DNA from: a virus
Reading direction: 5' to 3' (one strand)
Virus genome (UHGV): UHGV-0041835
Length of the DNA stretch: 18,062 bases
The notes beneath the pieces are model-generated. The model was not told where the DNA came from and searched no databases. It saw nothing but the letters and a program-made list of their open reading frames with translations. Shown one piece after another: positions 512-18,062 of this stretch. A program made the translations under genes and the position numbers. The stretch's first letter is position 1, and each line of letters opens with the position of its first letter.

Positions 512-1005
512 TGCTGACCCCACAAACAGATTTCACGCTCAATCTCACGACGAGTCATGAGACCTTTCCATTGCTTACCGCCAGCATATGTCCAGCGACG
601 TAGCTGATCACATGCGCCTTTGATATCGCCCTGGTTTATTTTGCGAAGAAGCGTCGATGTTCTGAAATTGCCAGCACCCACGTTGTAAACGAATGAGTAA
701 AGAGCGCCGCGCATTGTTTCCGGTATATCGACTTTGATGTACGGGTTAATTTGTCTGGCGACCGTGGCAAGGTCTTTATTCAGGAGGGCTTTGCATTCTG
801 CTTTGGTATACGTTTTACCGAGCATGATGTCTTTTCCTGTATGCCCGTGACATACAGTCCATACACCAACAATATCTTTGTATGGTATGTAGCTGACACC
901 TTCCAGACCATCGTTACCACTTGGGCCAGTGATTAACACTGATGCTATAGCAATTGCTCCGCCACCAATAGCAGCAGCAACGGCTTTTCGTAATGATGGA
1001 GGCAT
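508..1005 (-). CDS. R: SAR (signal-anchor-release) endolysin, lysozyme family, phage 21 R-like
   Basis: 165 aa. N-terminal Gly/Ala-rich weakly hydrophobic segment ([20 protein letters not shown]) typical of a SAR domain, followed by a T4-lysozyme-like catalytic region. Start overlaps the holin stop. Confidence 0.9.
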
Positions 1006-3079: not shown

Positions 3080-3463
3080 TCAATTAGAATTATTAGCAAC
3101 GATATCCATATCTAACCGGATATCTAATGCCATTAACATCCCTTCAATTATGCCCTCAGCCTTCTGTAACCTTTTCCCGATATAACCATCCGAGCAGCAA
3201 TGCTTACTTGCCAGTGACATGAATGTCATACCACATACATAATAATCTACTAATAAATCGTGTAAATCGCTGTTGTTCTTTTTCAGACGGGCCATGCACC
3301 CGCAAATGATCATCGCGTCATCGTCACAACATTGCGGGCGAGATTTTACTTTTGAAGGAATTAATCCCTTAAAACCGGCGGCAATGGACGACCAGGTCAC
3401 ATCTTCATGATTATTAGCCGCCCACGCACCCCAACGCTCAAGAACCATCTGAATATCACGCAT
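3080..3463 (-). CDS. Q: Late-gene antitermination protein Q (21/DLP12 QuuD-like)
   Basis: 127 aa from [22 protein letters not shown]..., with Cys-rich zinc-binding motifs ([23 protein letters not shown]). ATG at 3463 has GGAG 8 nt upstream; the track ORF starts at an upstream TTG. Sits upstream of the late region. Confidence 0.85.
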
Positions 3464-8491: not shown

Positions 8492-9151
8492 ATGAAAATG
8501 AAATGGTATGAACTGGCTAGATCCAGAATGAAAGAGCTCGGCATAACTCAAGAGAAGTTAGCCGAAGAGCTAGGTATGACGCAGGGTGGGATTGGACACT
8601 GGTTGCGCGGATCTCGTCATCCATCTCTTAGTGATATTGGTGTGGTGTTTAAATACCTTGGTATTGATAACATATCATTCAACCACGACGGGACATTTTC
8701 ACCTGTTGGCGAATACTCATCGGCCCCAGTTAAAAAACAATATGAGTACCCTGTTTTTTCTCATGTTCAGGCTGGGATGTTCTCTCCAGAACTCAGAACC
8801 TTTACCAAAGGCGATGCGGAGAGATTGGTAAGCACAACCAAAAAAGCCAGTGACTCTGCATTCTGGCTTGAGGTTGAAGGTAACTCAATGACCGCACCAA
8901 CAGGTTCCAAACCCAGCTTTCCTGACGGGATGTTAATTCTGGTTGACCCTGAGCAAGCTGTTGAGCCCGGCGATTTCTGCATAGCCAGACTTGGTGGTGA
9001 TGAATTTACCTTCAAGAAACTGATCAGGGATAGCGGTCAGGTGTTTCTACAGCCACTAAACCCACAATACCCAATGATCCCATGCAATGAGAGTTGTTCC
9101 GTTGTGGGGAAAGTTATCGCCAGCCAATGGCCTGAAGAGACGTTTGGGTGA
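8492..9151 (+). CDS. cI: CI repressor: divergent N-terminal HTH domain fused to a lambda-type C-terminal S24 autopeptidase domain
   Basis: C-terminal half is near-identical to lambda CI as recalled, including the Ala-Gly cleavage site (VQAGMF) and the Ser/Lys dyad (GNSMTAP, FKKLIRD). The N-terminal HTH ([18 protein letters not shown]) differs. Start is uncertain among ATG 8450, 8492 and 8498. Confidence 0.9.
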
Positions 9152-16643: not shown

Positions 16644-16880
16644 ATGTCTCGACTAATCACTTTACAGGACTGGGCTAAAGAAGAATTTGGGGACTTAGCA
16701 CCAAGTGAGCGAGTTCTGAAAAAATACGCGCAAGGGAAAATGATGGCCCCACCCGCTATAAAAGTTGGTCGCTACTGGATGATTGACCGAAATTCCCGTT
16801 TTGTAGGAACGCTTGCAGAACCGCAACTCCCAATAAACGCAAACCCAAAACTCCAAAGGATAATCGCTGATGGCTGCTAG
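16644..16880 (+). CDS. xis: Excisionase (Xis)-like protein
   Basis: 78 aa, MSRLITLQDWAKEEFGDLAPSERVLKKYAQGKMMAPPAIKVGRYWMIDRNSRFVG. The pattern LTLQ(D/E)W...PP(A/V)(I/V)K.GR resembles lambda Xis. AGGAGG lies 6 nt upstream, and the 3' end overlaps the int start. Confidence 0.7.
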   Translation: MSRLITLQDWAKEEFGDLAPSERVLKKYAQGKMMAPPAIKVGRYWMIDRNSRFVGTLAEPQLPINANPKLQRIIADGC

Positions 16881-18012
16881 ACCCCGATCTCACAAAATCT
16901 CTATACCCAATTTATATTGCAAATTAGATAAGCGAACCGGAAAGGTATATTGGCAATACAAACATCCACTATCCGGTCGTTTTCATAGCTTAGGAACTGA
17001 TGAGAATGAAGCAAAACAAGTTGCTACTGAAGCAAATACCATTATTGCTGAACAACGTACCAGACAAATATTAAGCGTCAATGAGCGTCTGGAAAGAATG
17101 AAAGGCAGGCGCTCAGACATTACGGTGACAGAATGGCTTGATAAATATATTTCTATCCAAGAGGACAGGCTGCAACATAATGAACTAAGACCCAACTCCT
17201 ATCGGCAAAAAGGCAAACCCATTCGTCTTTTCCGTGAGCATTGTGGAATGCAACACCTCAAGGATATTACCGCACTTGATATTGCCGAAATAATTGATGC
17301 TGTAAAGGCTGAAGGTCATAACAGGATGGCGCAAGTCGTGAGAATGGTGTTGATCGACGTCTTCAAAGAAGCACAACACGCAGGACATGTTCCGCCAGGA
17401 TTTAACCCAGCGCAGGCAACAAAACAACCGCGAAATCGAGTAAACCGCCAAAGATTGTCACTGCCCGAATGGCAGGCAATATTTGACAGCGTAAGCAGAC
17501 GGCAGCCCTATTTAAAATGCGGCATGCTACTTGCTCTTGTTACTGGACAACGTTTAGGCGATATCTGCAATTTGAAATTCTCTGATATATGGGACGACAT
17601 GTTGCACATTACTCAGGAAAAAACCGGTTCAAAACTTGCTATTCCGCTTAACCTGAAATGCGATGCTCTGAATATTACCCTTCGTGAAGTTATATCTCAG
17701 TGCAGGGATGCTGTTGTTAGTAAATATCTGGTCCATTACCGTCACACTACCTCTCAAGCAAACAGAGGAGACCAGGTTTCTGCGAATACTCTGACAACGG
17801 CTTTTAAAAAGGCCCGGGAAAAATGTGGCATAAAATGGGAGCAAGGAACTGCGCCCACATTTCATGAGCAGCGATCTCTGTCAGAACGGTTATATCGGGA
17901 ACAGGGTCTGGATACGCAAAAGTTGTTAGGCCATAAATCCAGAAAAATGACCGACCGATACAATGATGATCGTGGTAAAGACTGGATTATCGTAGATATC
18001 AAAACAGCATAG
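16870..18012 (+). CDS. int: Tyrosine integrase (lambda Int family)
   Basis: 380 aa. The C-terminal catalytic region has R...HxxR...Y motifs (TFHEQRSLSERLY...LLGHKSRKMTDRYNDDRGKDW) aligning with lambda Int as recalled; the N-terminus is arm-binding-like. Confidence 0.9.
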   Translation: MAARPRSHKISIPNLYCKLDKRTGKVYWQYKHPLSGRFHSLGTDENEAKQVATEANTIIAEQRTRQILSVNERLERMKGRRSDITVTEWLDKYISIQEDRLQHNELRPNSYRQKGKPIRLFREHCGMQHLKDITALDIAEIIDAVKAEGHNRMAQVVRMVLIDVFKEAQHAGHVPPGFNPAQATKQPRNRVNRQRLSLPEWQAIFDSVSRRQPYLKCGMLLALVTGQRLGDICNLKFSDIWDDMLHITQEKTGSKLAIPLNLKCDALNITLREVISQCRDAVVSKYLVHYRHTTSQANRGDQVSANTLTTAFKKAREKCGIKWEQGTAPTFHEQRSLSERLYREQGLDTQKLLGHKSRKMTDRYNDDRGKDWIIVDIKTA

Positions 18013-18022
18013 AAAATAGCCA

Positions 18023-18058
18023 GTTTTGGGGAAGGGTTTTGGGGAAAGTTTTGGGGAA
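18023..18058. repeat. Three tandem direct repeats of GTTTTGGGGAA immediately 3' of int
   Basis: gttttggggaa at 18023-18033, 18036-18046 and 18048-18058. The window ends at 18062, so the array may continue. Confidence 0.6.
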
Positions 18059-18062
18059 GATT

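Follow-up and report, generated by a model that had tools for sequence, protein, structure and literature searches.

The window, by which we mean the whole 18,062-nt stretch of DNA that was analyzed, closes with an excisionase gene, an integrase gene, and a short array of direct repeats. Over its entire length it matches Escherichia phage PhiR63_2 at 100% identity and ev207 at 99.8%; these are both lambdoid phages. The segment that comprises xis, int, and the array has 99.4% nucleotide identity to phage 21 (M61865.1, OL657228.1), and the 50 bp 3' of int are identical to those of phage 21. The rest of the window differs from phage 21 in being another lambdoid mosaic, of the PhiR63_2/ev207 type, with a porin gene. 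Judged by these identities, the window is a lambdoid phage with the int/xis/att module of phage 21. In the list of open reading frames, the 3' end of xis overlaps the start of int. The features of the module that lie within the window are as follows.

16644..16880, + strand: xis, excisionase, 78 aa (Pfam PF07825 Exc, E 6.7e-06); annotated as excisionase in phage 21 and PhiR63_2
16870..18012, + strand: int, tyrosine integrase of phage 21 type, 380 aa (PF09003 and PF00589)
16870..17082, + strand: coding region of the Int N-terminal arm-DNA-binding domain, aa 1-71 (PF09003); contains the class-specific hairpin segment NLYCKLDKRTGKVYWQYK, aa 14-31
18024..18035, + strand: probable arm-type site, int-proximal copy TTTTGGGGAAGG; annotated attP subsite in OL657228.1, at -265 from the crossover boundary in phage 21
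18037..18048, + strand: probable arm-type site, middle copy TTTTGGGGAAAG; annotated attP subsite in OL657228.1, at -252 in phage 21
18049..18060, + strand: probable arm-type site, core-proximal copy TTTTGGGGAAGA; annotated attP subsite in OL657228.1, at -240 in phage 21

At the other end of the window, the porin gene (1749-2891, + strand) encodes a Gram-negative porin of 380 aa (PF00267, E 2e-151) that is annotated as OmpD/NmpC/OmpC in related phages. It is on the strand opposite to the neighboring lysis genes and looks like a "moron" of the lysogenic-conversion type. The lysis genes themselves form a phage 21-type cassette at 50-1220 on the minus strand, consisting of an S21-family holin (1005-1220, PF04971), a lysozyme (508-1005), and Rz (50-523).

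The repeat array at the end of the window

Read from the sequence, int ends in a TAG stop codon at 18010-18012. An exact-match search of the window places three copies of the 11-mer GTTTTGGGGAA behind it, at 18023-18033, 18036-18046, and 18048-18058, with start-to-start spacings of 13 and then 12 bp. Ten nucleotides separate the stop codon from the first copy, which begins at base 11, and the end of the window reads TAG(stop)-AAAATAGCCA-GTTTTGGGGAA-GG-GTTTTGGGGAA-A-GTTTTGGGGAA-GATT. Both coordinates and spacing agree with an initial sequence-only reading, which had pointed out three identical 11-bp direct repeats, 12-13 bp apart, shortly 3' of the int stop. A single array was also reported by TRF (18022-18060, period 13, 3.1 copies, score 64). 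No inverted repeat was found within the array, and the last 360 nt contain no weaker copies of GTTTTGGGGAA (≤2 mismatches) besides the array on either strand. Across the whole 18-kb window, GTTTTGGGGAA has four matches at ≤1 mismatch, compared with 0.45 expected, and four or more matches were obtained in 0/200 shuffles. The fourth match, at 9101, carries one mismatch and is unrelated to the array.

Only 4 nt follow the last copy. The sequence-only reading had placed the end of the window either inside or just after the array. The second option stands and the first does not: phage 21 and a record with 100% identity have exactly three copies and then continue with ...GATTTTACATCATC... From this comparison, the array is complete at the window end.

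The array in phage 21 and the sequence beyond the window

The comparison with the phage 21 attP, which the sequence-only reading had recommended, shows that these very repeats are annotated there as attP subsites. In OL657228.1 (L001), the identical 37 bp carry the label [quoted passage not shown] and the phage 21 arm and that of the window show no difference of substance. The label, at 2925-2961, covers only the int-proximal arm of an attP of ~400 bp; the core and a fourth site are reached 230-400 bp beyond the annotated triplet. The phage 21 arm repeats are already known and already annotated. In the open full-text literature we found no paper describing the arm sites of phage 21, and attP is not taken up in the announcement of its genome.

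Past the array, phage 21 and PhiR63_2 show the same order of elements: a hairpin that copies the icd terminator, 165 bp that duplicate the icd 3' end on the opposite strand, the crossover boundary, and an AT-rich arm. The terminator hairpin is a separate element ~20 bp downstream of the array. The boundary of phage/host identity (...ATGGCGCAGCA|) is ~231 bp past the last repeat, and 120 bp past this boundary, on the AT-rich arm, both phages have a fourth perfect dodecamer, TTTTGGGGAAAG, in the orientation of the array. PhiR63_2, the record with 100% identity to the window, has the same downstream terminator, icd fragment, and fourth dodecamer as phage 21. In phage 21, the outermost dodecamers span 397 bp. 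This fits the minimal 21 attP of 366-418 bp, reaching out to the outermost repeated dodecamers, that Wang et al. reportedly delimited in the Journal of Bacteriology in 1997 (179:5705). The same work is said to have shown that 21 Int depends on the 21 arm consensus, not on that of e14.

In the lysogen MS8345, icd is intact and begins or ends 113 bp from the int stop, and the array is inside this 113-bp gap. The sequence-only reading had expected the att core and the host junction to lie beyond the window, and the extended records bear this out, with array, terminator copy, icd fragment, and boundary in the phages and the full icd gene in the lysogen. It had also named an origin from an unrelated host repeat or telomere-like array as the outcome that would speak against it, and nothing of this kind was seen in the extended sequence. 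The window phage itself would have its core, icd fragment, and fourth site past the window end, as in the identical and near-identical records.

Three smaller observations concern the far arm and the records. A weak inverted copy, TTAGCCAAAA, with two mismatches, occurs on the far arm ~67 bp past the boundary (about 3257-3266 in phage 21 L001 and 612-621 in PhiR63_2, L089) and may be the counterpart of the inverted P2 site of lambda. An exact IHF consensus is present once, on the far arm (2462-2474 in M61865.1, L002), which is at chance level (42/200 shuffles), and none is present between the array and the core. In M61865.1, the annotation puts the icd pseudogene at 537-700(-), whereas DNA resembling icd is found at 2211-2375; the coordinates given seem to have been mirrored from the opposite end of the 2910-bp record.

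The integrase and the proposed function of the array

The window integrase has an Arm-DNA-bind_1 domain (PF09003) at residues 1-71 (E 1.8e-28, 98.8 bits with a cut-off of 22) and a catalytic domain (PF00589) at residues 200-367, and its alignment with lambda Int structures spans the whole protein (1z1b, E 2e-55). Int thus carries an arm-DNA-binding domain of the lambda type, in line with the sequence-only reading. Window Int and phage 21 Int are identical at 377/380 positions, with no differences in residues 1-180, and share an identical arm-binding N-domain.

We conclude, with a probability of about 0.9, that the three repeats are the int-proximal (P'-arm) arm-type Int-binding sites of a phage 21-type attP. 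The sequence-only reading had put them forward as candidates for such sites, and the proposal is supported by the phage 21 subsite annotation, the identity of the module, the PF09003 domain, and the placement of the repeats. Points on the other side are the long distance from the triplet to the crossover, with no exact IHF consensus in between, and the exceptional locus and the phylogenetic confounding described below. As expected of a lambda-type system, copies of the motif occur on both arms, three in the window and the fourth, seen in phage 21 and PhiR63_2, outside it, and the triplet lies between the 3' end of int and the core. The int/xis genes, the array, and the icd fragment that make up a phage 21-type icd module are likewise all found, the icd part past the window end.

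If this interpretation is correct, attP would extend over ~400 bp from int and consist of three TTTTGGGGAARR dodecamers, the icd terminator copy, the 165-bp icd 3' replacement, the core, and the fourth dodecamer. The crossover core would be at the far edge of the icd block, with the fourth dodecamer, in the same orientation, 120 bp further on. By analogy with lambda, residues 1-71 of Int would bind the arm sites, with each protomer also contacting the core through its core-binding and catalytic domains. Joined to the core in this way, the arms would form an intasome, leading to integration into icd or, with Xis, to excision. The terminator-plus-icd fragment in the P' arm keeps icd functional after insertion. 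The roles of the Int domains in lambda are summarized in PMC7736782. Physical binding of Int to the array is predicted from the lambda analogy, and individual sites would be assigned their roles in integration versus excision in the same conditional manner.

Arm motif classes among related integrases

A family scan with one genome per species covered 80 loci (Enterobacterales) with Int relatives that are 42-100% identical. In most of these loci, a tandem triplet begins no more than a few tens of nucleotides past the int stop, and spacings among the relatives are 13 bp and then 11-12 bp. The motifs fall into four classes, listed here with the signature at Int aa 14-31.

Class TTTTGGGGA: NLY[C/R]KLDKR..K.YWQYK
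Class TTTTGATAA: NLYPL[Y/F]SRK.NK.YWRY[K/R]
Class TTTTGCAGA: [G/S]LS[C/P]Y.D[A/S]RT.K.YWRYK
Class TTTTACTGA: NLFCF.DPRTKR.YWQYK

At 50 of the 51 scorable loci, the motif class is paired with its own signature; that is, the site sequence covaries with the arm-binding domain of Int, as is characteristic of lambda-type sites. Residues 14-31 are nearly invariant in the TTTTGGGGA class and different in the other three classes. The sole exception, L027, combines a TTTTGGGGA-type N-domain with TTTTGATAA repeats. This locus is in a rearranged tandem-prophage region, beside an N-terminally shortened int (L028, without the first 28 codons).

The core-binding and catalytic domains of Int, too, are more alike within a class than between classes, and class is partly confounded with Int phylogeny. 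A comparison of within- and between-class identity by domain, being subject to this confounding, was replaced by loci in which arm class and target are uncoupled. Four loci of the TTTTGGGGA class (L082, L085-L087) lack icd in the 200 bp next to int. Compared with window Int, their integrases are 30-32% identical in the core-binding domain, and their Xis proteins are 31-42% identical to window Xis, whereas the N-domain signature is almost unchanged. Because Xis and target have diverged and the signature has been kept, the repeats follow the arm-binding domain of Int. From these sequences, repeat class tracks neither Xis nor the integration target.

The same loci bear on the possibility that the repeats are sites for Xis, or for another accessory DNA-bending protein, and not for Int. 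Lambda Xis binds the tandem direct repeats X1/X1.5/X2, which the present array resembles in being made of tandem direct repeats at roughly helical spacing, and an xis gene that adjoins int would be co-inherited with the arm. However, Xis similarity is not tied to repeat class: it is lower in the distant TTTTGGGGA loci than in the TTTTACTGA class (45-51% identical to window Xis), against a nearly invariant Int segment at aa 14-31. Moreover, the motif occurs on both arms, like the Int arm sites of lambda and unlike its Xis sites, which are only on the arm distal to int, and the array has the position of lambda P'1-P'3. We therefore consider it very unlikely that the repeats are Xis sites and prefer their identification as arm-type sites for Int.

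Tandem prophages provide a further view of these arms. Elements resembling 21 and e14 lie in tandem at icd in Proteus columbae (NZ_NGVR01000027.1; L015, L042) and in Providencia alcalifaciens (JAOQNJ010000001.1; L027, L028). At the hybrid junctions of such prophages, the int-side triplet is of one class and the copy at +120 to +122 has the motif of the neighbor, the result expected, if the arms are assigned as proposed here, when one P arm joins the P' arm of another element.

Two loci of the scan carry questionable taxon labels. In the uncultured Sutterella metagenome-assembled genome USAL01000018.1 (L008) and in Vagococcus sp. NZ_JBQPOM010000057.1 (L010), an enterobacterial int adjoins an icd that is 100% and 96% E. 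coli-like, respectively, and both assignments probably reflect mis-binning or contamination.

Other explanations for the array

An effect exerted by the nucleic acid itself, with the G-rich array serving as a G-quadruplex (G4) or as another 3'-untranslated-region or terminator element that regulates int expression, likewise appears to us very unlikely. The int-sense strand does fit a loose G4 motif, GGGG-AA-GGG-TTTT-GGGG-AAAGTTTT-GGGG (18026-18057, + strand; four G runs, longest loop 8 nt), and the array that fits it is in the 3' untranslated region of int. In the other three classes, however, the positionally homologous arrays have neither G runs nor a G4 motif, and G4 potential is thus not the conserved property. 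The array also lacks an inverted repeat, and the terminator hairpin is separate from it. A terminator within the array was rejected on these grounds, the hairpin being downstream. A known RNA family was rejected as well: Rfam gave no family at threshold, and the best match, to tpke11 (21.6 bits versus a gathering score of 43), falls on the terminator.

Among relatives, the int-proximal array has two copies in five loci (L014, L052, L056, L061, and L081) and four in one (L018), and this range of 2 to 4 suggests gain and loss of units by slippage. We give almost no credence to the idea that the repeats arose by neutral slippage, by chance, or from the host and play no part in recombination: although such variation in copy number is what slippage-prone arrays show, the count was not reproduced in any of the shuffles, the array is unchanged among phage 21, PhiR63_2, and the lysogen MS8345, the segment formed by the int 3' end and the array is present at ≥95% identity in 1679 of 5426 complete E. 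coli genomes (~31%), position and triplet are kept across genera while the motif changes jointly at four fixed positions, and the array is on the phage side of the junction, not in host sequence.

Significance of the probable arm-type sites

With the repeats taken as arm-type Int sites, the element in the window carries a standard phage 21-type icd integration module with its P'-arm Int sites intact. The int 3' end together with the array is useful for annotating prophage ends. The fixed geometry and the joint switching of the motif reach well past 21 and e14, and the comparison of classes singles out residues of the N-domain as the probable determinants of arm specificity.

A broader generalization is possible, although we offer it tentatively and regard it as doubtful in its full form. 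The array could represent one allele of a four-site arm system, locked in its geometry, in a large Enterobacterales Int family, in which specificity would have been switched at least four times (TTTT-GGGG/GATA/GCAG/ACTG-A), with all four sites and a segment of ~8 residues in the N-domain hairpin changing together, independently of core/target specificity and of Xis. The four arm-specificity classes and their fixed geometry may so far have gone without a systematic description. If the generalization is true and undescribed beyond 21 and e14, this natural "recognition code" could guide the design of orthogonal Int/att pairs.

Comparison with e14 and lambda

According to published papers, e14 integrates at the same icd attB as phage 21. 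The e14 Int is 60% identical to window Int, and e14 has three tandem copies of TTTTGATAA before the icd terminator copy and one more on the other arm, with the same terminator-plus-icd-fragment organization as phage 21. Relative to the identity boundary, the sites of the two elements are placed as follows.

e14: motif TTTTGATAA, copies at -265, -252, -241, and +120
Phage 21: motif TTTTGGGGAA, copies at -265, -252, -240, and +120

The comparison with the e14 attP, another that the sequence-only reading had called for, therefore yields the same four-site geometry with a different motif. That all four sites have changed together within one geometry is what would be expected, on sequence grounds, for the recognition sites of one protein whose specificity differs between the two elements. 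The N-domain hairpin of Int is different, being NLYPLYSRKVNKVYWRYK in e14 and NLYCKLDKRTGKVYWQYK in the window and in phage 21. The elements also differ in that ~3 kb, containing ymfD, ymfE, and lit, separate the e14 int from the arm, whereas the window int is directly at the array.

The parallel with lambda, from which the sequence-only reading had argued, is close in organization. The three P' sites of lambda (P'1-P'3) are tandem and in the same orientation, and we verified that they abut and overlap the int stop; the window array parallels them, with the int-proximal copy TTTTGGGGAAGG, the farthest from the core, as the positional match to P'3 and the core-proximal copy TTTTGGGGAAGA as the match to P'1. 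On the other arm, lambda P1 has the same orientation, as does the fourth site of phage 21. Lambda Int and window Int share the same three-domain architecture with PF09003. The differences are in detail. The lambda arm motif is C/AAGTCACTAT and that of the window TTTTGGGGAARR, and comparison of the consensus sequences agrees with the earlier statement that the two are unrelated. Sites are spaced 10-11 bp apart in lambda and 12-13 bp apart in the window, and the P' sites are ~55-85 bp from the crossover in lambda but 240-265 bp from it in phage 21, where the P' arm is longer because the 165-bp icd fragment and the terminator intervene. The target is attB-lambda, between gal and bio, in one case and icd in the other, and the Int N-domain of the 21 family has a 5-residue insertion in its first hairpin relative to lambda Int.
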